64,000 bases of DNA from an uncultured Candidatus Saccharibacteria bacterium (GTDB lineage Bacteria; Patescibacteriota; Minisyncoccia; Phycocordibacterales; UBA918): positions 117,888-181,887 of the forward strand of contig CAZSOS010000001.1 of the NCBI GenBank assembly GCA_964608605.1, given 5' to 3'. Both the position numbers and the translations under genes were made by a program. The notes beneath the pieces were generated by a model, which saw only the letters and a list, made by a program, of their open reading frames with translations, was not told the origin of the DNA and did not search any database. Positions within the stretch are counted from its first letter, which is position 1. Every line of letters starts with the position of its first letter. Positions 3,720 through 58,717 of the stretch are shown here, in pieces.

Positions 3720-3728
3720 TGTTATAAT
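3720..3728 (+). promoter_or_regulatory. extended -10 box TGtTATAAT 6 nt upstream of ddl ATG (leaderless arrangement)
   Basis: gtgTTATAATctccgtATG. Confidence 0.5.
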
Positions 3729-3734
3729 CTCCGT

Positions 3735-4697
3735 ATGAAAAACCTGCGGGTAGCGGTGCTTCGCGGCGGGCCGAGCGACGAGTATGACGTCTCGATGATG
3801 ACCGGCAGCGAGGTCATAGCTTCGCTCCGACGCCAAGGCGTCGATGTCGTCGACGTGATCATCAATAAGAAGGGTGAGTGGATGGTTCATGGCTTCATGA
3901 CCGAGCCCAAAGCTTTGGCGGTAGTGGCCGACGTGGCTTTCGTGGCGCTGCACGGGCAGTACGGTGAGGACGGCACGGTCCAACGTATCTTAGACAATGC
4001 CGGCATGCCTTATACCGGCAGCCGTGCGTATCCTTCGGCTTTGACGATGAATAAGATCCTTACTAAGGACGTGTTGCGCGCGGCCGGCGTGAAGACTCCG
4101 CCGCACTTGCGCGTCACTCGCGCCTCGACCGACGTGCGCCGCGTGGCCACCACCATCGAGTCGCTCTTTGGTCCCACCTACATAGTGAAGCCGATTAACA
4201 GCGGTTCGTCCGTTTCCACCTATAAGGCTAGCGGCGTGCACGAGCTGGTGCGCGCGCTCGCGAGCGCGCTTCGAGATCGCGATGAGGTCTTGGTGGAAAA
4301 ATACATCAAGGGTCGGGAGGCCACCGTGGGCGTGGTCGAAGGGCTGCGAGGGGAGTCGTTGTATCGCTTGCCGACGGTGGAGATCATACCACCGGCCTCG
4401 CACGGGTTCTTCGACCGCGACGTGAAGTACAACGGTGCCACCGAAGAGATATGTCCGGGCCGGTTCTCTCGTCAGGAAAAGCAAGATCTGGAGGAGGCCG
4501 CTTTAAAGGCTCACGGACTGCTCGGACTTTCACACTATTCTCGCAGTGACTTCATGGTCGCTGATGATGGTATCTATTTCCTGGAGACCAACACTTTGCC
4601 CGGACTCACGCGCGAATCACTGATCCCGAAAGCTTTGGCCGCTGTCGGACATTCTTATGACGACTTCATCATGCATCTCATCGAACGCGCGCGATGA
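3735..4697 (+). CDS. ddl: D-alanine--D-alanine ligase
   Basis: ATP-grasp family; N-terminal VAVLRGGPSDEYDVS, C-terminal FLETNTLPGLT motif characteristic of Ddl. Confidence 0.9.
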   Translation: MKNLRVAVLRGGPSDEYDVSMMTGSEVIASLRRQGVDVVDVIINKKGEWMVHGFMTEPKALAVVADVAFVALHGQYGEDGTVQRILDNAGMPYTGSRAYPSALTMNKILTKDVLRAAGVKTPPHLRVTRASTDVRRVATTIESLFGPTYIVKPINSGSSVSTYKASGVHELVRALASALRDRDEVLVEKYIKGREATVGVVEGLRGESLYRLPTVEIIPPASHGFFDRDVKYNGATEEICPGRFSRQEKQDLEEAALKAHGLLGLSHYSRSDFMVADDGIYFLETNTLPGLTRESLIPKALAAVGHSYDDFIMHLIERAR

Positions 4698-4752
4698 TTT
4701 ATGCACATGTTTCATCTGGACCGACCGAACGCTTCGTCTCATAATGGAATGA

Positions 4753-5397
4753 ATGAAGGAGACAACTACTAAAGAGAAGAAGAGCGTGACCACGAAGAAG
4801 CCGCGAGTTAGATCGGCCAAAGTGACTAGAGCAGAAGCGGCACCGGCTCACCAGGGCTCAAAAGGTGAGAATGAGAAAGCTATTCTGATATCGCTAGCTT
4901 ATCTGATCGGATTCTTGACGGCCTACATCGCCTTTTCTCTTAACGGCGGTACCACGGTCGAACATCAAAGATTGGCCGAGCATCGCCCTTATGCCCTGGC
5001 CGGATCCGAACAAGTAGCGGCGGCTAGTGGACGGGTCGGCATCCATAATGACGACGAGGGATTGTTCGTGGTCAATCATGGCCGTGAGCGCATCATCAGC
5101 GCCAAAATGAACGCTAGCGAATATGAACCAGGTTTTCACCGCGGCATCGCTTCCACCGCGGTATCGGGTGACGATAACTTCGTCCATTATTGCGCCATGA
5201 TGACGGTCTCGGATGATCAGTGTTCGCACTTCGTCTACGTGGTCGACGAGGACAAGGTCTATCGCGTGTCTCACGCTGGCGCGCCTCTCATTACCTCGAC
5301 CAACGAAGCTATGAACGCCGCCTGGTCCGACATCAATCTTCTCAGTGTTGGCGACCGAGTATCCGTGAACGCGGCCACCCCTTGGATCCTGGAGTGA
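4753..5397 (+). CDS. hypothetical membrane-anchored protein (Lys-rich N-terminus, one TM helix)
   Basis: ORF; no recognised domain. Confidence 0.45.
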   Translation: MKETTTKEKKSVTTKKPRVRSAKVTRAEAAPAHQGSKGENEKAILISLAYLIGFLTAYIAFSLNGGTTVEHQRLAEHRPYALAGSEQVAAASGRVGIHNDDEGLFVVNHGRERIISAKMNASEYEPGFHRGIASTAVSGDDNFVHYCAMMTVSDDQCSHFVYVVDEDKVYRVSHAGAPLITSTNEAMNAAWSDINLLSVGDRVSVNAATPWILE

Positions 5398-6287: not shown

Positions 6288-6875
6288 TCACCCCCGAGCG
6301 GTCTTCAAAGCCTTGGTCCACCATCGGAGCTGCTCGATCATCGACTTGGCTTTTTCATCATAGGAATCGAAGAGCTCCTTGGCGTCAGCCTGACCGAAGT
6401 AGACGGGGAAGTAGCGTTCGCCGTTCATGTGGATGGCTTCCCGGATCGGGGCCATCTGCAGTTCGATGGCCGAAAGCCGCAGCTGCTCGACCGCTCGCGC
6501 GCCGCCGACCGAGCCATAGCTCACGAAGGCAACTGGCTTCTGGTTCCATTCTTGATATACCCAATCAAGAGCGTTCTTGATGACCGCGGAAGGACCGTGG
6601 TTATATTCCGGAGTTACTAGTACGTAAGCGTCGCCTTCGGTTATCTTCCCGGTAAAGCGGGCGACCGCCTCGTCTGCGTAGGGCGCGGTCTTCATGGATG
6701 GAGAAACAGCTTCGTTAAAGAAGGGCATCTCGTAGTCCTTGAGGTCGAGGATCTCGGCGTCGATATCTTCGAACTTGGATAATTCGCCGGCGATCCATTC
6801 GGCCGCTTTGAGGCTGAAGCGACCTTCGCGGGTGCTGCCAGCGATGACTTTCACGTTCAATTTTTGGTTTTCCAT
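6288..6875 (-). CDS. NADPH-dependent FMN reductase family flavoprotein
   Basis: KVIAGSTREGRFS ... VTPEYNHGPSAVIKNALDW motifs of NADPH-dependent FMN reductase fold. Confidence 0.75.
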   Translation of the reverse strand: MENQKLNVKVIAGSTREGRFSLKAAEWIAGELSKFEDIDAEILDLKDYEMPFFNEAVSPSMKTAPYADEAVARFTGKITEGDAYVLVTPEYNHGPSAVIKNALDWVYQEWNQKPVAFVSYGSVGGARAVEQLRLSAIELQMAPIREAIHMNGERYFPVYFGQADAKELFDSYDEKAKSMIEQLRWWTKALKTARG

Positions 6876-6940
6876 AAATACATTCTATCCGATGAGCCGG
6901 GTTGTGCAAAAAGCCGCTGGCGCTGACTAAGAATGTTATA

Positions 6941-8678: not shown

Positions 8679-8821
8679 TCGTGATCAGACGGGAGTCAGG
8701 CTTCAGGCTTGGTTCCCGTCTGCTCGTGAGCAGATTATTTAATAGCACTTAGCACTTAGGTTTTAGCGGTTAGGTGTGCCAGCCAAGCTGGCACACCGTG
8801 CTAAGAACCAAGTGCTAATAA

Positions 8822-9064
<243 letters not shown>

Positions 9065-9676: not shown

Positions 9677-10051
9677 ATGAACGCGCAACTAAAACGATAC
9701 GTCGAAGCCGCGGCCGCCCTTCTCAAGGAGGGGATGGCCGTCGACGTGGTCCTCCGGAATCTGCGCCGGATCATGGACGACCGCGGCCACGGCAAGATGT
9801 ACCAAGCGGTAGCGCGGGCGCTGGCTCGGACCTATCCTTCGATCGAACGCTCCGTAACCCCGCTGTTGACCGTGGCCAAGGAGTCGGACGCCGCCAAGTA
9901 CCGACAGCTCGTCGGCGACAAGGATGTGGAGGTCAAGATAGACCCTTCGATCATCGGCGGCTACGTTCTGACCGAAAACTTCACCCGCCGGGACAATAGC
10001 TATCGATCCAAACTGCTCACGTGGTATCGGTCGGCTATTGCCTCAAAATAA
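9677..10051 (+). CDS. atpH: F0F1 ATP synthase subunit delta (short, 124 aa)
   Basis: C-terminal IDPSIIGGYVL OSCP/delta signature; operon position. Confidence 0.7.
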   Translation: MNAQLKRYVEAAAALLKEGMAVDVVLRNLRRIMDDRGHGKMYQAVARALARTYPSIERSVTPLLTVAKESDAAKYRQLVGDKDVEVKIDPSIIGGYVLTENFTRRDNSYRSKLLTWYRSAIASK

Positions 10052-10117
10052 AAAAGTAAATGTCAAAATAAAAATATAGTCTTTTGACATTTGAGTTTTA
10101 AATTTTAAATTAACAAC

Positions 10118-11686
10118 ATGAGTACCAACATCGTAGAGAAATTGAAGCAGGAGATCGCCGGGCTCGCCGCCGAAGCGCCGGCCGAGAAGGTGGGCGTCGT
10201 TACGGCCGTTTCCGACGGTATCGTCGAGATCGAAGGCTTGCGAGCGGCCAAGATGATGGAGATGGTCTCGTTCGACCAAAGCGAAGGACGTGAACTCAAG
10301 GAAGCCTTGGGCCATTCCGGCGCGCTCTTCGGTTTGGTACTCAACCTCGAGGAGGATGGCGTCAAGGCGGTGGTCTTGGGAGACGCCACCAAGGTGAAGG
10401 AGGGAATGACCGTGCGCCAGACCGGCCAGCTTTTGTCGATACCGGTCGGCGAGGGGATGATCGGTCGCGTGGTCAGCCCTCTCGGCGAGGCCATCGACGG
10501 GCTCGGTGCGATCAAGGGCAATAAGGACATGCCGATCGAGCGCGTGGCTTACGGCGTGATGGACCGTTCGGCGGTGAACGAGCCGCTTCATACCGGCATC
10601 AAGGCTATCGACTCGATGATCCCGATCGGCCGCGGCCAGCGCGAGCTCATCATCGGCGACCGCGGCACCGGCAAGACCACCATCGCCATCGACACCATCA
10701 TCAACCAGAAGTACGAGCCGAAGGAGAAGCGCCCGATCTGCATCTACGTGGCCATCGGCCAGAAGCGCAGTAAGACCGCTAGCCTCATGGCTAAGCTGGA
10801 GGCTGCCGGTGCCATGGAGTACACCATCATCGTCGCTACTTCGGCTTCCGAGGCCTCACCATTGCTCTTCTTGGCTCCCTTTGCCGGCGCCGCCATCGGT
10901 GAATACTTCATGGAGCAGGGACGTGATGTCCTAGTGGTCTTCGACGACCTTTCCAAGCACGCCAACGCCTATCGCCAGATGTCTCTCTTGCTCCGCCGTC
11001 CGCCGGGACGCGAGGCCTATCCGGGCGACATCTTCTACTTGCATTCTCGTCTTTTGGAGCGCTCCGCCAAGCTCTCCAAGGAGCTCGGCGGCGGATCGAT
11101 CACCGCGCTGCCGATCATCGAGACCCAGGAGGGAGACGTGTCGGCCTACATCCCGACCAACGTCATCTCCATTACCGATGGCCAGATATTCCTGGAAGGC
11201 GATCTCTTCAACAAGGGCATCCGCCCGGCTTTGAACGTCGGCATCTCAGTGTCGCGCGTGGGATCGAGTGCTCAGACAAAGGCCATGAAGAAAGTGGCTG
11301 GCAAGATTCGTCTGGAGCTGGCGCAGTTCCGCGAGCTCGAGGCTTTCATGCAGTTCGCCTCCGATCTCGATGAGGAGACCAAGGCCCGCATCGATTCCGG
11401 CCGCAAGTACGTGGAGCTTTTGAAACAGAGTCAGAACGCGCCGGTGCCGTTCTACGAACAGGTAGTGGCCATCTACGCCGCCAACTCCGGGATCTTCGAC
11501 GGCACCACCCCGGAGAAGGTGCGGGAGCTGGAAGCCGCTTGGATCGCGTTCTTGAAGCGTGACCGCGATGATATCATCAATGATATCAAGACCGGCCGCG
11601 AGCTCACTGACGAAATAGTCGGCAAGCTGGACACCGCCATCGGGGACTTCAAAGATTCGCACCCGCAATTCTATGGAATCGTGTAA
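10118..11686 (+). CDS. atpA: F0F1 ATP synthase subunit alpha
   Basis: Walker A GDRGTGKT, full-length alpha homology. Confidence 0.95.
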
Positions 11687-11790
11687 TTTTGAGTTTCAAA
11701 TTTCGAATTAATTTCTAATGAACTAATTTTGAAACATTCGGTTATTCAAAATTGTATCGAAATTCGAAAGTCATCATTCAAGATTCGCTT

Positions 11791-12716: not shown

Positions 12717-14132
<1,416 letters not shown>

Positions 14133-14253
14133 CCTCATCTGCTTTGTTGCGCTTCGGAAAATAGTGCTCGCTGGACTGTCTTTGTCTCACTCACATTATT
14201 TTCCTTGCGCGCCTCGCATCTGAGGCCATCTAACCCCTTCAATCAAATACACT

Positions 14254-14570: not shown

Positions 14571-17500
14571 ATGCACCAAAGACGCGCCGCGTTTATCGGC
14601 GGTCTCAGTCTTTTTCTGTTAGTGTTGGCGATCTGCTTCTGCGTTGGCTTTGTTTTTTCAGCGCGTCAGACACCTGAAGAGAACGCGGTGAGTTCCGGTG
14701 TAGAAAAGGCAGAGCCGGTCTCGTTCTCTCCTTGGCGGACTCTCTTCTGCGGTCTGCGCTCGCTTGTCCTTTGGCCTTGTGCTGAACCGACTTCTCTCCC
14801 AGAACCTTCTATGCCCGCTCCAACCACTTCCATTGAGACGCGGCCGGTTCCGGCAGTCGATCTAGATGTCGCTACCACCTCTGCTTCAACCACGTCTTCT
14901 TCACCCTCCACCCAATACATAACTAACGAAACCATAGTCCGCCCCCTCGAACGCGAAATCATCCGCGAAATCACCATCCGCGACCAGGCCGTCGACACTT
15001 CCCGTTTCGTCACCCGTACTGAATATGATAGGCAAGTAGACGCGCTTCTGCGGTCCATTGAGAGTAAAGGTGGTAGTACCACTATAGTGGATCAAGGTGG
15101 CGGTGGAGGAGGTCCTGAAACCGACCCTGTCTTCATCGCTTCCGCCGCTTTTACCATTACTGGTGGTGATCTTTCTGATTGGAATCAGGCTTTTGGATGG
15201 GGTGATCACACCCAGGCTGGTTATCTAACTTCGTTCACCGAAAATGACCCACTTTTCTCCTCGTCCACCGCCGCTTCCATCACCAATACGGATGTCTCAA
15301 ATTGGAACCAATCTTTTGCTTCTTCAAGCGTGCTATCTATATCAGTGTCTGGTCTCATGGCGTCGTCGAGCGCTTGGGACCAGGCTTTTGGGTGGGGCGA
15401 CCACTCCCAAGCCGGATACCTCACTTCGTTCACCGAACTCGACCCCATCTTCAGCACCTCACCGGCCTTCGGCATCAGCGGCACCAATATCAGCAATTGG
15501 AATAGTACGTACACCACCGTCACCGCCTCCTCTTCACAGTGGGGAAGCGCGTACACCTTGGCCACTCTCTTGAACTCCGCTTCCTCCACCTGGAACCAAG
15601 CCTACTCCTGGGGCGACCACTCCACGGAGAACTACATCCAACAGAACACCGACGCCACTCTCGACAACGCCACCACCACCAACCTCACCACCAACACACT
15701 CACGCTCTCTGGAGCGCTCAAGACTGGTCTCTCAGACGGTTGCGTTGAAGTAGCTGGCGGTGTCCTCACTTCTCTGGGAGTGGCATGTGGCACTGGCGGC
15801 GGGGGACTGACAAACCTCAATGGCCTCACCTCTTCCTCGCAATCTTTCGCCACTTCCACTTCCGGCGGTCTTTCTCTTAACATCACCTCATCGGGAGGGG
15901 TACATACGTTTTCTGTGGGACTGCAGGCTGGTCGGACCCTGCCGCTTACCGCTAGTACCACTGAGTGGGCCAACATCAGGAACCTGGTCAACGCCTCCTC
16001 TTCACAATGGGGAAGCGCGTACACCTTGGCCAATCTCCTCAACAGCGCCTCCTCCACCTGGAACGCCGCCCATGCCTCCACCACCGCCCTCACGCCCTCG
16101 TACCTCCGCGGACTCTTCAATGCCGGTACCGGCCTCTCGTACGGCACCACCACTGGCACCTTCACCAACACCGGCGTCCTGTCGATCGGAGGGCTGAGCG
16201 GGAGCGTGGCGACGAGTTCGTTGGGGCTTGGTAACAATAGCTTCATCGGATTGTCCGACACCCCAGGTTCATATAACGCCGATCGCGTCTTGTTCACCAA
16301 TGCTGCCGGCAACGCTTTGACCGACTCCGCCAACTTCACCTATAACGGCAGCTCCGAGTTGCTGACGATCAGTGGCAACCTCGCCACCGGCTACGGCATC
16401 TCTTTGGGGTCTTCCGGAGGCATATATGCCAGTGAAGATATCCTGACCGCGGGCAACGGCATCAATATCATCGGTACCGAACACGCGGTTTTAAGGACCG
16501 GTAACGCTTACGTCTCTCTCACTGATGATGGAATCGATACTTTTGCCAATATTGCTGGTGATGGTGTCCAGCTCTACTCCCATTTTGATGACATCACCCT
16601 TCATTCCACTAATAACATCATTCTCACCGGCATCGGCAACGTCGGTATCGGCACCACCACGCCATCGCACAAGCTGACGGTGGCAGGAAACACTCTTATT
16701 GCTGGGAATGCCACTACTACGGGCAACCTAGTGGTGCAAGGGGCGGACATCGTGCTGGGAAACACTGGCATGGGTTACATAAGTAGTGCTTCAGGTGGAG
16801 TCTTGATCCTGGGGGGCGCCTCTAACGGTACCGGTGAAAATCTACGTTTTGATTTTGATATCAGTACTGGTCTTGATTTAGATGTGGTAACAGTAAGTTC
16901 TGGCACCGGTGCTAATCATTTGTTATTCCTCATGGGCCTGGAGACGATGGGAAATCTTAAGGTCGGCGGCAATATCACCGATGCTACCTGGCAGGGAAAT
17001 GATATCGACATCTCCGACTACACCAACCTCGGCGTCACCGCCACTGGTCTTTCTCTTTCTGGAGATAACATCGCTCTGACTGCTGGCTATTCCATACCAC
17101 TCACCTCTTCCACCTCAGAATGGACCACAGCGTATTCCTGGGGCGACCACGCCACGCAAGGCTACTTGACCGGCCTCGGCACTTCCACCTTCAACGGCAA
17201 CATTTCGATGGCCGGACATATCATTCCGGCGGCCGACATCACCTACGATCTCGGTTCACCCACTAGCATGTGGCGGGACGTCTACATCGGTCCGGGTTCT
17301 CTCTATATCAATGGCAAGAAGGTGTTGGAGGACGTGTCGGATACCATTACGTTGCGTACCGATCACAACCAGAATCTCGCGGTGCAGACCAGCGGTATCG
17401 GCAGTATTCATGTCAATGCTTCATCCACCGGCGGCATCACCATGGAGTCCATCTCAGGTAATATCAACATCACCTCCGCCTCTGGCAACCTCAACATCGG

Positions 17501-20500
17501 CACCACCGGCAGCGGTCAGCTCAACCTCGGCACCATTAACCAAGGCGTCTGGCACGGCACCGACGTCGACATCTCCGACTACACCAACCTCACCGTCTCT
17601 GCCACCGGCCTCACTTTGAACAACGACGCCATAGAGCTTGCTTCCGGCTATGCTATTCCACTCACCGCCAGCACCACTGAATGGATGAGCGCTCGCACTG
17701 ACGTGCTCGCGCTCACGGCCTCCTCCACCCTTTGGGATTCTTTCTACAACACCCCTTCATCCCGCCTCACCGCCGGCACCGGTCTCTACTGGAGCGGCAA
17801 TACTCTAAACGCTTCGTCGTCGGCTGACATCAACTACTGGACGTTGTCGGGAGGCAATGTTTATAGGGCTTCCGGCAATGTGGGTATCGGGACTTCCACT
17901 CCCGCTGCTAAGCTGGATGTTCAAGGTAGCTGGTTGCGTCTCCTTAATCCAAGTGGGGGATCGAGCATAACCTCGCAAAGCGTAGGAGGGGAGGCTATTT
18001 TCGCGGCGCGCAATTCGGCCAACGCTTGGACCTCCGGTGTAAACACCAGCGGACAGTATTTTATCTACGACGAGACCAATGCCAGCATACCTTTCCGTAT
18101 CTATCCTAGTTCTGCGAACAGTGTCATGTCAATCAATGGTAGTAATGTTGGTATCGGCACTACGACTCCGAACTCTAAGCTTCACCTAGCCGATGGATAC
18201 ATGCTTGTAACGCGCTCAGAGACCGCTAGTCAACCTAACTTTTATCAAGCCTTGAACTCCAGCGGCAGCGGCTTCGGTCTTAGATATACCGAGGATGCTA
18301 TCGGAAACATCCCGGCAGATGCCTGGCAGTTCAGATTATCCGGAACCAACGTCAGCCCGCTCATCTTCTCAACTTTCGACTCGACTCCGATCCTGACCAT
18401 GGCGACTTCCGGCAATATTGGCATTGGTACTACGACGCCTAACGCGGCGTTGGACATCAGTTCCACAGCTACGGGGGCTGTCACGGCAGCCTTCTTTAGA
18501 TCGAACCCAGGTGGTGCTGGGGCGGCGAATCAAAATACGATTGTGCTCGATAACCTGCAGGGTTCCGCTAACTTCAAAAATTCCATCCGACTCGCCAGTA
18601 ACGGGGCTTTGAAGTGGTCATTCGGAAATGATTACTACGGCGCTGGAGAGCAGAATTTCTTCATACATGACGCGGTATCCAACGCGGCGCGTCTCTTGAT
18701 AGATCCGGACGGCAACGTCGGTATCGGGACCACCAGTCCAAACAGTATCTTGAATATCAACACCGGCCTCTCCGGTTTTATGGGCCTTCCCGCACACGGC
18801 AGTGTAGGCTTCGGTAATTTCAGTTCTGGTAATACGGCACCTAGCATGATGGCCCGCTCGGATAATTCGACGGCCCTCCGTCTAATTAGCTTAGCAAGCA
18901 ATAGCAACACTGACGCCGACATGAACTTCGATGTCCGTGAGAACGACAACACCGACTTCGCCACCTTGACCAGTCAAGCGTTCAGCTTCAGCCGTTTTGG
19001 CAATAGCCTACTCACTATCCTACGCAGCGGCAACGTTGGCATCGGTACCTCGACGCCCAGTGCGAAGCTTAGTGTACAAGGCACCATTCGGGCAGAGAGT
19101 GTCTCATCCATTAGTACAGGGTCTGGCGTTGAAATCAACTACAACACCGGCACCGGACTCGGTAAGATCCAAGCCTATGATCGAGACGCAAGTACTTTTA
19201 AGGACTTGTGGCTAGATGGCTCTACGCTCACTCTCGCTACTGGCGGTGCTTCTCGCGTGACCATCCTTCCTTCTTCAGGAAATGTCGGTATAGGAACCAC
19301 TACTCCTCAAGCTACACTTCATCTCGGCACTTACGGCGCCACCCTCCGCCTCAATAGCCCAATAACTGGTTCTGGCATATACGGATACAATGACGCTAGT
19401 GGCGGTTTAGCTTACTCCTTCACGCGTCAATCCAACGACCTTCATATCACCGGCGCGACCGGCATCGGGTTCCAGTCTAACGCAGGTTCAGGCATAAATA
19501 CTGCTAGCACCTCGATGTATATCTCTTCCGCCGGCAACGTGGGCATCGGCACTACAACCCCAGCGAGCAGATTAAGCGTGTTTTCAACTGACAGCGTTAT
19601 CGCGGAATTCACCGCTTCGTCATCGGCAGCTACTCGAATGAAGCTAAATACCACAGGTTCCAATAAAAACGTGGGACTTAGTCTGGCAATAGACGGCATT
19701 ACTCGATGGACCAACGCCGCCTATCTCCCGAACGGGACTAACTATGACTACACGATATGGAATGACGCACTTAATAGTCCAGCCCTCCTCATTGACGGTG
19801 ACACGAACAACATCGGTATCGGCACCCTTAGTCCTGCATACAAACTCCATCTGGCCTCCGGCACGACGACGTTGGCCATGGTACCGTGGCAATCGGATGA
19901 TCTGGTAATACAAGGAGGTCTGGCAGAACAGAACGGCATCTCCATAGTCAACGGCTCCAATAAATACCTCACCTTCGTTGATGACAACATCGGCATCGGC
20001 CAGATCGGCTATTACTGGAACGGCAACATGAACTTCCTCACCGACGGCACGGAGCGAATGGTTATTAATGCCACCGGCAACGTCGGCATCGGGACCACAT
20101 CACCACTTACGAAACTCGACGTGAAGGGCTCGATCTTGATCGATCAAGGATCGAACGGACGTCTCATATTCAATAATTATACTTCTTTGTCAGATCATGG
20201 ACCATATATCGGCTACTCTACAGGTAACAATTCCATGGACATCGTGTCCGGAATGAACCCCAATGCCAATGGCGTTGGCACGGGTGGTATCCGCTTCGGT
20301 CGAGCCAGCGGTTCGTCGTGGGCCACGACCATGGTCATCGACGGCTCCGGATTGGTCGGTATAGGTACCTCAACACCTACACACAGTCTCACCGTAGGCG
20401 CGGTCAATTCGACCGTTGATCGGATTATCCGGGTCGTATCGCAAAATAACGTTGGCCTTATCCTTGAAGCCGATACGGATAATCTTACCGAGACACATAA

Positions 20501-21470
20501 CCCGTACGTGAAGATGTCGCAAGACGGTGGGGCGGTGGCTAGTATCATGGGTATGACCGGTGGTGCCAACATCGATCCTGAGGGTAATACCTTCACCGGC
20601 GGACACGATAATGCCCTGGTCTTGATCAACCAGTATGCCGGTTCAATACAGTTGGGTACTAACGGAGCTCCCCGGCTCTCTATCGTTTCTTCGGGTAATG
20701 TCGGCATCGGCGCCTTGTCTCCCTCCGCCCAACTCCACACCACCGGCACCGTCCGTTTCGCCAATTTCGGCGCCGGCACCCTCCAGACCGACGCCTCCGG
20801 CAACCTCTCAGTCTCCTCAGACACCCGTCTTAAAGACCTCGAAGGTACCTTCGACCGCGGACTCGAAGCCATCTTAGGCATAGAACCCATCATGTACCGC
20901 TGGAACGCCGCTTCCGGCTACGACCGTTCTACTCTATACGCCGGCTTCTCCGCCCAGAACGTGGAAGACTTCATCCCCGAAGCCGTGGGTACCAACCCTG
21001 ACGGTTTCCTCTCGTTGTCTGATAGACCGCTCCTGGCGGCGGTGATCAACGCGGTGAAGGAGATATACGGCCAATTGACGACTTTGTCCGATAAGATCGC
21101 TGGCTTTGCCGACAGCTTTATGTCCGCCAGCATCACCGCCACCGACAGGATCTGCGTGGGAGACACATGCGTTACCGAAGGTGAGTTGAAGGCCGTGTTG
21201 GATATGGTCGGTAGCAATGGTGGAGGCTCTAACGATGGAAATGGCAGCTGGGGCGGATCTTCCGGCGGCGGCGACACCACGACCGGTACTTCGACCGCCT
21301 CCACCACGCCGCCGGTTACCTCGACCTCGACACCGCCCGCCACTCCCGTATTAGGCTGTATGGACCCTCTGGCTTCGAACTTTGCTCCCGCGGCCACGGA
21401 GGATGATGGTTCGTGCGTATTTCCGCCCGCGCCGCCGGACGAGTCGGCCACCACCACTCCGGCGGAGTGA
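14571..21470 (+). CDS. giant secreted/surface repeat protein (2299 aa): N-terminal TM/signal, Pro/Thr-rich linker, tandem repeat modules, ~12 GNVGIGTTTP-type repeats, C-terminal phage tailspike-like intramolecular chaperone (peptidase S74-like) domain and Cys motif tail
   Basis: uninterrupted ORF; internal repeats visible at protein level; SSDTRLKDLEG...IMYRWNAASGYDRSTLYAGFSAQNVEDFIPEAV motif near C-terminus. Confidence 0.85.
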   Translation: MHQRRAAFIGGLSLFLLVLAICFCVGFVFSARQTPEENAVSSGVEKAEPVSFSPWRTLFCGLRSLVLWPCAEPTSLPEPSMPAPTTSIETRPVPAVDLDVATTSASTTSSSPSTQYITNETIVRPLEREIIREITIRDQAVDTSRFVTRTEYDRQVDALLRSIESKGGSTTIVDQGGGGGGPETDPVFIASAAFTITGGDLSDWNQAFGWGDHTQAGYLTSFTENDPLFSSSTAASITNTDVSNWNQSFASSSVLSISVSGLMASSSAWDQAFGWGDHSQAGYLTSFTELDPIFSTSPAFGISGTNISNWNSTYTTVTASSSQWGSAYTLATLLNSASSTWNQAYSWGDHSTENYIQQNTDATLDNATTTNLTTNTLTLSGALKTGLSDGCVEVAGGVLTSLGVACGTGGGGLTNLNGLTSSSQSFATSTSGGLSLNITSSGGVHTFSVGLQAGRTLPLTASTTEWANIRNLVNASSSQWGSAYTLANLLNSASSTWNAAHASTTALTPSYLRGLFNAGTGLSYGTTTGTFTNTGVLSIGGLSGSVATSSLGLGNNSFIGLSDTPGSYNADRVLFTNAAGNALTDSANFTYNGSSELLTISGNLATGYGISLGSSGGIYASEDILTAGNGINIIGTEHAVLRTGNAYVSLTDDGIDTFANIAGDGVQLYSHFDDITLHSTNNIILTGIGNVGIGTTTPSHKLTVAGNTLIAGNATTTGNLVVQGADIVLGNTGMGYISSASGGVLILGGASNGTGENLRFDFDISTGLDLDVVTVSSGTGANHLLFLMGLETMGNLKVGGNITDATWQGNDIDISDYTNLGVTATGLSLSGDNIALTAGYSIPLTSSTSEWTTAYSWGDHATQGYLTGLGTSTFNGNISMAGHIIPAADITYDLGSPTSMWRDVYIGPGSLYINGKKVLEDVSDTITLRTDHNQNLAVQTSGIGSIHVNASSTGGITMESISGNINITSASGNLNIGTTGSGQLNLGTINQGVWHGTDVDISDYTNLTVSATGLTLNNDAIELASGYAIPLTASTTEWMSARTDVLALTASSTLWDSFYNTPSSRLTAGTGLYWSGNTLNASSSADINYWTLSGGNVYRASGNVGIGTSTPAAKLDVQGSWLRLLNPSGGSSITSQSVGGEAIFAARNSANAWTSGVNTSGQYFIYDETNASIPFRIYPSSANSVMSINGSNVGIGTTTPNSKLHLADGYMLVTRSETASQPNFYQALNSSGSGFGLRYTEDAIGNIPADAWQFRLSGTNVSPLIFSTFDSTPILTMATSGNIGIGTTTPNAALDISSTATGAVTAAFFRSNPGGAGAANQNTIVLDNLQGSANFKNSIRLASNGALKWSFGNDYYGAGEQNFFIHDAVSNAARLLIDPDGNVGIGTTSPNSILNINTGLSGFMGLPAHGSVGFGNFSSGNTAPSMMARSDNSTALRLISLASNSNTDADMNFDVRENDNTDFATLTSQAFSFSRFGNSLLTILRSGNVGIGTSTPSAKLSVQGTIRAESVSSISTGSGVEINYNTGTGLGKIQAYDRDASTFKDLWLDGSTLTLATGGASRVTILPSSGNVGIGTTTPQATLHLGTYGATLRLNSPITGSGIYGYNDASGGLAYSFTRQSNDLHITGATGIGFQSNAGSGINTASTSMYISSAGNVGIGTTTPASRLSVFSTDSVIAEFTASSSAATRMKLNTTGSNKNVGLSLAIDGITRWTNAAYLPNGTNYDYTIWNDALNSPALLIDGDTNNIGIGTLSPAYKLHLASGTTTLAMVPWQSDDLVIQGGLAEQNGISIVNGSNKYLTFVDDNIGIGQIGYYWNGNMNFLTDGTERMVINATGNVGIGTTSPLTKLDVKGSILIDQGSNGRLIFNNYTSLSDHGPYIGYSTGNNSMDIVSGMNPNANGVGTGGIRFGRASGSSWATTMVIDGSGLVGIGTSTPTHSLTVGAVNSTVDRIIRVVSQNNVGLILEADTDNLTETHNPYVKMSQDGGAVASIMGMTGGANIDPEGNTFTGGHDNALVLINQYAGSIQLGTNGAPRLSIVSSGNVGIGALSPSAQLHTTGTVRFANFGAGTLQTDASGNLSVSSDTRLKDLEGTFDRGLEAILGIEPIMYRWNAASGYDRSTLYAGFSAQNVEDFIPEAVGTNPDGFLSLSDRPLLAAVINAVKEIYGQLTTLSDKIAGFADSFMSASITATDRICVGDTCVTEGELKAVLDMVGSNGGGSNDGNGSWGGSSGGGDTTTGTSTASTTPPVTSTSTPPATPVLGCMDPLASNFAPAATEDDGSCVFPPAPPDESATTTPAE

Positions 21471-25192: not shown

Positions 25193-25277
25193 AAGTTAGG
25201 GTGAAGGGTATAGGGTAAAGGGTAAGTGGGGTTGGTGAGATCGGGGCGCGGCGGCTTCGCCGCCGCGCCCCGATCTC

Positions 25278-27798: not shown

Positions 27799-27910
27799 TT
27801 TGAGTATCAACAGGACCGCGTCATTGATACGACGTCTTTTCTGTTAGACTGTATTCATCGTTAATTTTGATTTCGAAATTGATTCAAAATTGAGAATTCA
27901 AAATTAGAAA

Positions 27911-28498
27911 TTGTTTCATATGTCTAAAAAAATCCTGGTGCTGCTCGGCCATCCCGACAAGGACACCTATTCCGGCCAGATGGCCGACCGCTACGAGCAG
28001 GCGGTCCGGGCCGCGGGTCATGAAGTTCGTCGAGTCAATTTAGGGGAGATGCAGTTCGATCCGATACTCCATAAGGGATACAAGGAGATCCAGGCCCTGG
28101 AACCGGATCTGGTAACGCTGCAGGAACAGTTCCGGTGGGCCGAACATATCGTTATCGTATATCCGAACTGGTGGAATACCATGCCGGCCCTGCTCAAAGG
28201 CCTCTTCGACCGCATGTGGCTCCCCGGCTTCGCCTTCAATTTTGACAAGGAGACCAAAAAACTGATCCAGCGTCTTGACGGCAAGACTGCCAGAGTGATC
28301 ATTTTGGCCGGCACGCATAGCCCATTCCAGACGTGGTGGAAGTTCGGCGACTACACCAACGAGATCCAATACGGCATCCTGGAGTTCGCCGGTATCGAAA
28401 CCAAGGTCTCGGCCTTCGGCCCTTGCGAAAAGGTGGACGGTGTCTGTCGCGAAAAGTGGTTAGGGCAAATCGAGTCACTAGCGAAAAGGGGTGCGTAA
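27911..28498 (+). CDS. flavodoxin-like NAD(P)H dehydrogenase (quinone) family protein
   Basis: KILVLLGHPDKDTYSGQMA ... YPNWWNTMPALLKGLFDRMW pattern of Flavodoxin_2/NQO-like proteins. Confidence 0.75.
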   Translation: MFHMSKKILVLLGHPDKDTYSGQMADRYEQAVRAAGHEVRRVNLGEMQFDPILHKGYKEIQALEPDLVTLQEQFRWAEHIVIVYPNWWNTMPALLKGLFDRMWLPGFAFNFDKETKKLIQRLDGKTARVIILAGTHSPFQTWWKFGDYTNEIQYGILEFAGIETKVSAFGPCEKVDGVCREKWLGQIESLAKRGA

Positions 28499-29804: not shown

Positions 29805-29902
29805 AATGGTATAATTCTGGGAGATGAAACGGCACGGAGGCGAAGCCGCCGTGCCGCCAAGACTACGTTCTACGTACTAATTACCACTAGCTAAATCTAT
29901 TT

Positions 29903-42123: not shown

Positions 42124-42172
42124 AGGAAAGCGCGGGCCGGCCCGCGCTTTTTCGAATGCTATAATCAGACAC

Positions 42173-42970
42173 ATGGAATTCGCCAAGAGATACAATCCCG
42201 ACCGTTCGCCCGATTGGAACTACGGCGGCCAGAAGTGGCGGCTGTCGCGTTCCAAGATCGATCTGTTCATCGAGTGTCCGCGCTGCTTCTATATCGACAA
42301 CAAGCTGGGGACCAAGCGTCCGGGCATGCCGTCTTTCAACCTCAACATCGCCGTCGACGAACTCTTCAAGAAGGAGTTCGACGTGCATCGGAAGAACGGC
42401 ACGCCGCATCCGATCATGACCAGGTACGGCGTCCAGGCCGTGCCGTTCTCACACCCTAAGATGGACGAGTGGCGCGATCCTTTCGCGGGCGTGTCGCATC
42501 TCCATGAAGCCACCGGGCTCGTGGTCTGCGGCGGCGTCGACGACCTCTGGCAGGCGGCCAACGGGAAGATCATCGTGGTCGACTACAAAGCCACTTCCAA
42601 GGCCGAGCGCATCGAGAAGCTCGGCGACTCGCCCTGGGAAAAGCAGTACCAGCGCCAACTCGGAGTCTATCGTTGGCTGCTGGAACACAACGGCTTCGAG
42701 GTCGAGGACCTGGGTTATCTGGTCTATGCCAACGCCTCAAAAGAAGAGGACGCCTTCGACGACAAGCTGACGTTCGAGACCACTTTGGTGGAATGTCCCA
42801 CCATGACCGACTGGATAGAGCCCACCCTGGCCAAGATCAAGTCCTGCCTCGAGGGTGACGCGATCCCGCCTTCGGGAGACGGCTGCGAATATTGTCCTTA
42901 TCGAGAGGCCTCGGGAAAGAAGCTCATGTCTTTGCATCTCCAGGCTAAGAAGTTAAAATCAAAAGGTTGA
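42173..42970 (+). CDS. Cas4-like/RecB-family PD-(D/E)XK nuclease with 4 Cys
   Basis: SRSKIDLFIECPRCFY N-terminal motif, GGVDDLW, IVVDYK, QYQRQLGVYRWLL (QxxxY), C-terminal CEYCPY. Confidence 0.7.
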   Translation: MEFAKRYNPDRSPDWNYGGQKWRLSRSKIDLFIECPRCFYIDNKLGTKRPGMPSFNLNIAVDELFKKEFDVHRKNGTPHPIMTRYGVQAVPFSHPKMDEWRDPFAGVSHLHEATGLVVCGGVDDLWQAANGKIIVVDYKATSKAERIEKLGDSPWEKQYQRQLGVYRWLLEHNGFEVEDLGYLVYANASKEEDAFDDKLTFETTLVECPTMTDWIEPTLAKIKSCLEGDAIPPSGDGCEYCPYREASGKKLMSLHLQAKKLKSKG

Positions 42971-50788: not shown

Positions 50789-51166
50789 ATGAGAATTTCA
50801 GGTATCAACATCCCAGATAACAAGCATCTCTCGTTCGGACTGACCGCCGTTTACGGCATCGGTCGTACCCGCGCCAAGGAGATCCTGGCCGAGCTTAAGA
50901 TAGACCAGTTCGCCAAGCCGGCCGACCTGTCCCCGGAATTGGAGAACTCCGTTCGCGAGAAGGTGGAGTCCTTCACCATCGAAGGCGAATTGAAGCGCAA
51001 GGTGTCCTCTGACATCAAGCGTCTCAAGGACATTCAGTCTTACCGCGGATCGCGCCATCAGAAGCGCTTGCCGGCCCGCGGCCAGCGCACCAAGACCAAC
51101 GCCCGCACCTTGAAGGGCGTCAAGAAGACGATGGGTAGCGGACGCCGTAAGCTCGAGAAAACCTAA
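50789..51166 (+). CDS. rpsM: 30S ribosomal protein S13
   Basis: MRISGINIPDNKHLSFGLTAVYGIGRTRA. Confidence 0.9.
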   Translation: MRISGINIPDNKHLSFGLTAVYGIGRTRAKEILAELKIDQFAKPADLSPELENSVREKVESFTIEGELKRKVSSDIKRLKDIQSYRGSRHQKRLPARGQRTKTNARTLKGVKKTMGSGRRKLEKT

Positions 51167-51239
51167 AAGTTGAAACTTGAAATCTCAAAATGGAAAATTT
51201 TCAACTTTGAGATTTCCACTTTAAATTTACAAATTTCCT

Positions 51240-57536: not shown

Positions 57537-57603
57537 GATGCAAGCAATGCGTGGCGGCGAAGCCGCCACGCCACTCAACCCTGAACCCTAATCCCTTTAC
57601 CCT

Positions 57604-58677: not shown

Positions 58678-58717
58678 CAAAATAGGGAAGAGGGTTCAGG
58701 GTGAAGGGAGTAGGGAA

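Follow-up and report, generated by a model that had tools for sequence, protein, structure and literature searches.

The sequences closest in kind to the AT-rich spacers described here are the intergenic heptanucleotide repeats (PMC4692102) and the IVS elements (PMC4990558). Bacterial intergenic DNA is enriched in heptameric repeats, an excess attributed to polymerase slippage; examples are the STRR-type repeats of cyanobacteria and the units GGGAATC of Xanthomonas and GGGGAYT of Nostoc (PMC4692102). The 23S rRNA IVS of Coxiella, Leptospira and Salmonella are sporadic elements of ~100-450 nt, with or without a PF05635 four-helix-bundle (S23p) ORF that is prone to decay and has heptameric repeats upstream of it; their terminal inverted repeats form a stem, 28 bp long in Coxiella, at which RNase III cuts (PMC4990558). 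A heptamer-repeat hairpin, (ATCTTTC)n, is also an RNase III target in the 5'-UTR of hmw of H. influenzae (PMC12721329), and at least 90% of CPR genomes have kept the gene rnc (PMC12641178).

The four spacers resemble the heptanucleotide repeats in several respects: 7-nt units stand in tandem in intergenic or intercistronic DNA, some of them are paired in inverted orientation and can form stem-loops, related genomes differ in the length and sequence of the repeats, and each genome has its own flavour of unit (PMC4692102). Here, however, only 3-6 degenerate units occur, which consist almost entirely of A/T instead of being G-rich; they adjoin start codons in operons and, together with inverted duplication, build up palindromes that run from end to end. 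The spacer between atpA and atpG is like an IVS in having two arms and an apparent ATG...TAA relic. Unlike IVS, the spacers lie between protein-coding cistrons and not in an rRNA helix, their stems are A-U-rich and imperfect, a direct link to S23p is found only in other genomes (the loci L108 and L053), and RNase III cleavage is putative here. The likeness to hmw lies in a heptamer repeat in a leader that may serve as an arm of a long hairpin modulating expression, but the hmw repeat is long, perfect and phase-variable and belongs to a pathogen adhesin gene, whereas the repeats of the spacers are short, degenerate and situated in housekeeping operons (PMC12721329).

The four AT-rich spacers and their counterparts in relatives

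The spacers were brought forward by a sequence-only reading as an AT-rich family in a GC-rich genome, and all four were found where that reading had located them. They are named sp1 (atpH-atpA), sp2 (atpA-atpG), sp3 (upstream of a Flavodoxin_2 gene) and sp4 (rpsM-rpsK), and their coordinates are given in Table 1 together with those of the other features. The stretch of DNA analysed, referred to as the window, is 64 kb long and is the visible part of the genome; genome and window have 55% GC, the spacers 17-26%. With AT-rich islands scored over 30 nt at GC<=0.27, the four are the longest islands of the window, with 99-114 nt as opposed to 76 nt for the next-longest. According to Pfam, the flanking genes are atpH/atpA for sp1, atpA/atpG for sp2, an unknown ORF and Flavodoxin_2 for sp3, and S13/S11 for sp4, the neighbouring genes being assigned to ATP-synt_B, OSCP (delta), alpha, gamma, beta, Flavodoxin_2, S13 and S11.

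Table 1. Coordinates of the spacers, their internal features and related elements; positions refer to the window unless a locus is named.
Feature	Position	Strand	Remark
sp1, atpH-atpA spacer	10052..10117	+	66 nt, 17% GC
sp1 perfect direct repeat TCAAAATAAAAA	10043-10054 and 10063-10074 (10043..10074)	+	12 nt
sp1 perfect hairpin AAATGTCAAAA / TTTTGACATTT	10058-10068 / 10082-10092		11-bp, 13-nt loop
sp1 sigma-70-like site TTGACA-16-TAAATT	10084..10111	+	ends 6 nt before atpA ATG
sp1 heptads TTTGAGT TTTAAAT TTTAAAT	10090-10110	+	overlap sigma-70-like site
sp2, atpA-atpG spacer	11687..11790	+	104 nt, 26% GC
sp2 left arm AATTTTGAGTTTCAAATTTCGAATT	11685..11709		pairs with right arm 11761-11785
sp2 centre ATG-AAC-TAA	11718..11726	+	
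sp2 central hairpin AATTTTGAA / TTCAAAATT	11725..11753		9-bp, perfect
sp2 right arm AATTCGAAAGTCATCATTCAAGATT	11761..11785		ends 5 nt before atpG ATG
sp3 extended -10-like box TGTTAGACT	27842..27850	+	upstream of AT-rich block
sp3 AT-rich block upstream of Flavodoxin_2 gene	27862..27919	+	
sp3 arms	27862-27880 / 27888-27906		84% complementary
sp4, rpsM-rpsK spacer	51167..51239	+	73 nt
sp4 end-to-end imperfect palindrome	51156..51239		42-nt arms, 74% complementary
sp4 perfect pair GAAATCTCAAA / TTTGAGATTTC	51179-51189 / 51206-51216		11-bp
sp4 direct repeat	51199-51217 / 51220-51238		19-nt, spaced 21 nt
atpB-atpE spacer	8679-8836		GC-rich hairpin, then long heptad-arm hairpin (8740-8836) ending at atpE ATG
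dnaJ arms	57577-57603 and 58684-58716		ACCCT-type just before ATG, AGGGT-type just after stop
TATAAT-like boxes near ATG, examples	3723-3737, 4740-4755, 6875-6890 (- strand), 42160-42175		
PF05635 (S23p) genes between atp genes	L108 4913-5394 and 6750-7236; L053 6517-6992		

The AtpA relatives place the window in Patescibacteria/Minisyncoccota, among Paceibacteria/Kaiserbacteria-like MAGs. Its AtpA is at most 85% identical to any other full-length sequence, a value reached by the syntenic relative JGI Ga0604629_0000048, and a metagenome scan with AtpG gave no match closer than 69% identity. Loci from relatives are cited by L-numbers such as L003, L108 and L169, those of the syntenic relative being L165/L169. 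At the junctions of sp1 to sp4 the window has 66, 104, 121 and 73 nt, the syntenic relative 24, 8, 59 and 33 nt, and only the last ~9-10 nt before the ATG can be aligned between the two. The atpA-atpG spacer measures 9 nt in L084 and 8 nt in L081, the closest relatives available, 8 nt in L169, and 13 nt as a median across 124 loci. The sp4 junction is 29-33 nt long in relatives, which have in common with the window only the last ~9 nt (ATTYCCT before ATG), and the AT-rich block of sp3 is missing from L169. In these alignments the four spacers thus appear as lineage-specific expansions relative to other genomes.

Several other features were seen in the window and its relatives. A 2299-aa repeat-rich ORF (14571-21470) lies between atpC and the next gene and is absent there in L081 and L169, and at the atp junctions of many other relatives there are small ORFs for membrane proteins. 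The atpD-atpC spacer (14133-14253) holds a non-coding element of ~110-120 nt with a long stem and a central hairpin (z -4.2), which has no Rfam match and recurs at atpD-atpC or atpG-atpD in L028, L029, L016, L008, L023, L013, L090, L088, L031 and L032 (Paceibacteria). GC-rich, near-identical hairpins of the GGCGCGGCGGCTTCGCCGCCGCGCC type, a sequence common to several loci, stand at the gene ends 25245-25269, 29831-29855 and 57549-57572 and look like terminators. One perfect palindrome with 20-nt arms TATACCAGTCTGACTAGTAT occurs in frame both in uvrC (2307-2367) and in atpD (13023-13078, with 22-nt arms at 13027-13078), where it adds ~13-15 residues missing in relatives; it resembles the Rickettsia palindromic elements, and no copy was found among the 170 loci examined. 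A second perfect palindrome of uvrC (2527-2608, 22-nt arms ACCCCCACACCAACTTTTCCGT / ACGGAAAAGTTGGTGTGGGGGT) falls on an insertion of 30 residues that the syntenic relative lacks.

Seven-base repeats, inverted arms and the question of a common motif

The strongest autocorrelation in each spacer is at lag 7, with z values of 3.5, 2.6, 2.9 and 5.0 for sp1 to sp4, and this period of seven is a robust property that the four have in common. The degenerate 22-mer core proposed by the sequence-only reading can itself be written as three heptads, TTTGAGW TTYNAAW TTYRAAT. Tandem 7-nt periodicity of the STRR-like kind is thus present in all four spacers, with degenerate and imperfect units, and so are the intergenic site and the length variation between related genomes. 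Other leaders of the window show the period in units of another kind, those upstream of atpE, atpF and dnaK being of the GCTAA type and those upstream of dnaJ and an AcrB-like gene of the ACCCT type, and the period extends through the clade in the atp operon (z 4.6 in 84 spacers, z 5.2 in 73 atpE leaders). Tandem heptads directly upstream of atpG were also seen in the atpA-atpG spacers of three distant, GC-rich and probably non-Patescibacteria loci, L143 (3430-3477), L133 and L113, their units being TTTCGAA x4, GAGCACT x6 and AAATCGT x3, respectively.

Besides the heptads, the spacers contain direct repeats at spacings of 14, 20, 21, 32, 40 and 61 nt, of which 14 and 32 nt are those within the sp3 block. 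The direct repeat TCAAAATAAAAA of sp1 is a copy of the last atpH codons and the stop, its second copy reading ATG-TCA-AAA-TAA. The inverted repeats quoted by the sequence-only reading, AAATGTCAAAA/TTTTGACATTT in sp1 and GAAATCTCAAA/TTTGAGATTTC in sp4, do exist, and the inverted arms take in native sequence, namely the atpH stop region, the end of rpsM and the start context of rpsK. The sp4 palindrome begins in the stop region of rpsM and reaches the conserved start context of rpsK. Terminal inverted repeats of the IVS-like kind bracket sp2 and sp4 and are partially developed in sp1 and sp3. Palindromes arise automatically wherever units that are their own reverse complement, for instance TTCGAA and AAATTT, stand in tandem.

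The 22-mer had been taken as the signature of a family, and it is present exactly in sp1 and sp2 and with 2 mismatches in sp4; in sp3 it appears with 3 mismatches and solely on the other strand. Its estimated chance occurrence is a circular figure, as these very spacers had supplied the motif and the shuffles were made from the GC-rich window. Three of the six spacer pairs are more similar than dinucleotide shuffles of the spacers in Smith-Waterman (SW) comparisons, sp1-sp2 with z 4.5, sp1-sp4 with z 5.4 and sp2-sp3 on the reverse strand with z 4.2, but nhmmer with each spacer against the window and 84 loci gave no cross-family match among the four at E<=10, its sole match being that of sp2 to L003. 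Hexamers common to at least three spacers number 7 as against 2.5 +/- 1.8 expected. TCAAAAT, AAATT and TTTGAR recur among the spacers, TCAAAAT being the only word in all four, and the exact word TTCAAAATT has four occurrences in the window, all within sp2 and sp3. All of these similarity statistics are to be read as values for short, low-complexity AT-rich sequences. No Rfam family matched the whole window at the gathering score, and at E<=5 three regions returned only generic hairpin (miRNA-precursor) noise. The spacers do not align with each other beyond their composition as a single conserved cis-regulatory RNA or DNA motif family would, and one shared functional motif behind the four is not supported by these comparisons.

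The atpA-atpG spacer and S23p cassettes

Of the four, sp2 has a homologue. The Minisyncoccia MAG L003 (AtpA 79%, AtpG 68%) carries a 116-nt spacer at the same atpA-atpG junction, and 81 of 103 positions (79%) are identical to sp2 (nhmmer E = 6.5e-6), the right arm being the best-conserved block. The C-terminus of AtpA is shortened in both. All 15 pairs of the consensus of the two spacers are kept, four of them with changes (one compensatory, three one-sided). The four-fold sites of atpA and atpG are 28-39% identical between window and L003, sites adjacent to the spacer included. As a point against a neutral sp2, 79% identity at such saturated divergence would need constraint or lateral spread, both of them hypothetical. 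With 5/21 and 12/31 of the adjacent four-fold sites identical, saturation holds right beside the spacer, and a recent lateral transfer of the sp2 region with its flanks was rejected on this ground. It is unlikely that sp2 hides a small ORF or extends the N-terminus of AtpG, since the in-frame TTG at 11752 is countered in L003 by an in-frame TAA within the conserved block. Nor do the heptads place stops in all three frames, since the last 35 nt of sp2, checked by eye, are free of stop codons.

A possible origin of sp2 is indicated by L108, which has a PF05635 (23S_rRNA_IVP, S23p) gene between atpG and atpD. The two flanks of this cassette repeat each other in inverted orientation (z 4.2, against -0.1 for direct orientation) and correspond colinearly to the left and the right half of sp2 and of the L003 spacer (z 2.6-4.4, with at most 9 of 300 shuffles reaching the score), and the left arm of sp2 is similar to the spacer preceding the 23S_rRNA_IVP gene. 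In this alignment the start and stop codons of the cassette fall on the sp2 centre ATG-AAC-TAA, whose counterparts are ATG-ACC-GAA in L003 and the ORF start ATG-ACT-GAA in L108. The flanks of the second L108 cassette are inverted as well (z 3.4); for the L053 cassette, inverted complementarity of the flanks was below significance. The resemblance is suggestive: sp2 is probably an ORF-less relic of a small S23p cassette flanked by inverted arms, and ATG-AAC-TAA may be what is left of the start and stop of the deleted ORF. This link is drawn from two cassette-bearing loci (L108, L053), low-complexity alignments, modest z values and an nhmmer E of 0.007. A PF05635 gene was not found in the window, and sp1, sp3 and sp4 contain no clear remnant of such an ORF. 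Neither was any rRNA found in the window; the junctions concerned are those of atp and ribosomal-protein cistrons and not an rRNA helix.

Function or tolerance of the spacers

The genes behind the spacers indeed start without a Shine-Dalgarno (SD) sequence, as the sequence-only reading had noted, but since 41 of the 46 window genes with a confident ATG do the same and five have an SD-like sequence, the absence of SD does not mark these spacers. A TATAAT-like box of the leaderless type stands 6-9 nt before the ATG in 10 of the 46 genes, which implies that leaderless mRNAs may be frequent, and the leaders of the remaining genes are G-poor and A/T/C-rich. The starts of atp genes in relatives (n=381) have 2-15% G at -15 to -1, 40-53% A at -12 to -3 and T at -1 in 67%. 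A search of the literature yielded nothing specific on Shine-Dalgarno sequences, leaderless mRNAs or the initiation of translation in Patescibacteria. In this setting the spacers could be regarded as A/U-rich translational enhancers or standby sites that make up for the missing SD, which would agree with their place immediately 5' of SD-less starts, their G-poor, A/U-rich composition and the A-rich, G-depleted start contexts of the clade. However, the SD-less start is the rule, and in relatives 8-33 nt of spacer precede the SD-less starts of the orthologues. The blocks are moreover self-complementary rather than unstructured, and the four start regions are not predicted to be uniformly accessible (ranks 6, 17, 34 and 41 of 46, with the atpG start sixth lowest). 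These points speak against the standby-site or S1-binding role that had been proposed, and we consider an enhancer function quite improbable. The spacers might instead be internal promoters, possibly with UP-like A/T tracts, which drive leaderless or short-leader transcripts. The sequence-only reading had argued against a promoter, and for sp2, sp3 and sp4 this holds, as they lack a sigma-70-type match or a TGnTAnAAT box. The exception is sp1, where a site close to the ATG (10/12 positions match) is the most promoter-like one in the atp region, and the leaderless-type boxes elsewhere in the window would fit such transcripts. Against this, the typical promoters of the genome are the TGnTAnAAT boxes that the spacers lack, comparable sites in the right place are missing from sp2, sp3 and sp4, and chance hexamer matches are expected in AT-rich DNA. 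In sp3 the AT-rich block follows a conserved -10-like box and would thus sit in the 5'-UTR; inspection by eye brings this box, TGTTAGACT, close to TGCTATACT of the relative, which there precedes the ATG by 10 nt, while MAFFT puts gaps in the latter part of the box. A promoter role would be credible for sp1 only, and as an account of the spacers, which would mainly concern sp1, it is very unlikely.

An RNase site is the suggestion of the sequence-only reading that has survived best, and by analogy with described systems a site for the double-strand-specific RNase III is plausible (PMC4990558, PMC12721329). Taken further, the spacers could be functional RNase III processing stems whose inverted heptad arms are selected for cleavage, which would split cistrons and create 5' ends beside SD-less starts. 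The neighbouring atpB-atpE spacer points in this direction, as it is well structured in the window (z -5.6) and in L169 (z -5.0) and keeps the architecture of a long hairpin with heptad arms while the sequence is replaced, the arms being AGCACTT / AAGTGCT in the window and GAGGTTC / GAACCTG in L169, both complementary. Similar hairpins were observed in L003, L001 and L091. In addition, dnaJ is bracketed by complementary heptad arms with a predicted duplex of -37 kcal/mol (z -4.1), the S23p genes of L108 are bracketed likewise, the pairs of sp2 are kept in L003, and the precedents named above (PMC4990558, PMC12721329) are joined by the conservation of rnc in CPR (PMC12641178). The arrangement around dnaJ, which is absent in L165, resembles an rRNA/IVS processing stem placed around a whole cistron. 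However, the four spacers fold only slightly more stably than shuffles (z -1.3 to -2.1), the antisense strands of sp4 and of the L003 spacer fold equally well or better, which leaves no signature of selection on sense-strand RNA structure, and the absence of the spacers from close relatives means that they are not required. The perfect stem of sp1, with 11-12 bp, is short for RNase III, and a pairing of sp1 with sp2 that would bracket atpA received no support (duplex z -0.3). We therefore regard selected processing stems as unlikely. The wider proposal, in which inverted heptad arms form an IVS-like, RNase III-dependent cistron-excision system of Patescibacteria mRNAs, is decidedly unlikely; it would have the arms bracket whole genes, as in the L108 S23p cassettes and the window dnaJ, or fold as ORF-less hairpins, with cleavage leading to 5' ends beside SD-less starts and leaderless-like translation, and the four spacers would be young or weak members. 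Short palindromic intergenic insertions such as REP/BIME, RUP, Correia and the Rickettsia palindromic elements are tolerated in operons and can affect mRNA processing or stability, and they form multi-copy families with a recognisable consensus, unlike the four spacers, which have none. If the spacers were nevertheless copies of one MITE-like mobile palindromic element family inserted at four sites, their terminal inverted arms, the 5-bp direct repeats at the edges of sp2 (TATGG) and sp3 (TTCAT), the other small palindromic insertions of the genome, even in frame in uvrC and atpD, and AT-rich spacers of like flavour at other junctions in L003 and L108 would find an explanation. But nhmmer shows neither full-length similarity nor near-identical copies among the four, the arms include native gene ends, and TATGG and TTCAT are already present at the empty sites of relatives, so there are no clean target-site duplications. 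The combination of near-identical copies, terminal inverted repeats and target-site duplications that characterises a MITE is thus not found, which makes this origin highly improbable.

The explanation to which we incline, at a little less than even confidence, is that the spacers are recent, degenerate heptamer-repeat expansions that arose by slippage and inverted duplication, that sp2 is a cassette relic, and that they are tolerated by folding out. Slipped-strand and template-switch events would have duplicated native AT-rich sequence by the stop and start codons, both directly and inverted, whereas sp2 would derive from the S23p cassette with inverted arms after loss of its ORF. The setting would be intercistronic or 5'-leader DNA that is presumably transcribed. 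Each block, self-complementary over its full length although with a weak predicted stem, could fold into an A-U-rich stem-loop in the mRNA, looping out the extra sequence so that the upstream stop or the leader stays near the next start and the SD-independent initiation context of the clade (A-rich, G-poor, T at -1) is left intact. Because the blocks would fold out of this context, the spacers could be tolerated as nearly neutral sequence. The longer stems, in sp2 and sp4, are plausible RNase III substrates, and cleavage there would uncouple the stabilities of the neighbouring cistrons; any effect on expression would be modulatory and not essential.

Although modest, the finding removes a candidate regulatory motif common to the spacers and puts a mutational explanation, heptamer repeats with inverted duplication, in its place. 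It also describes a lineage of Patescibacteria in which almost all genes start without SD and long AT-rich intercistronic insertions are tolerated, and in which operon junctions, those of the atp operon above all, are hot spots for hairpin and small-gene insertions. The S23p/IVS-type cassettes with inverted arms between protein-coding genes hint that IVS biology extends beyond rRNA. If the arms are RNase III sites, they would provide a simple means of segmenting operon mRNAs in organisms that have RNase III, RNase J, PNPase and few other RNases.
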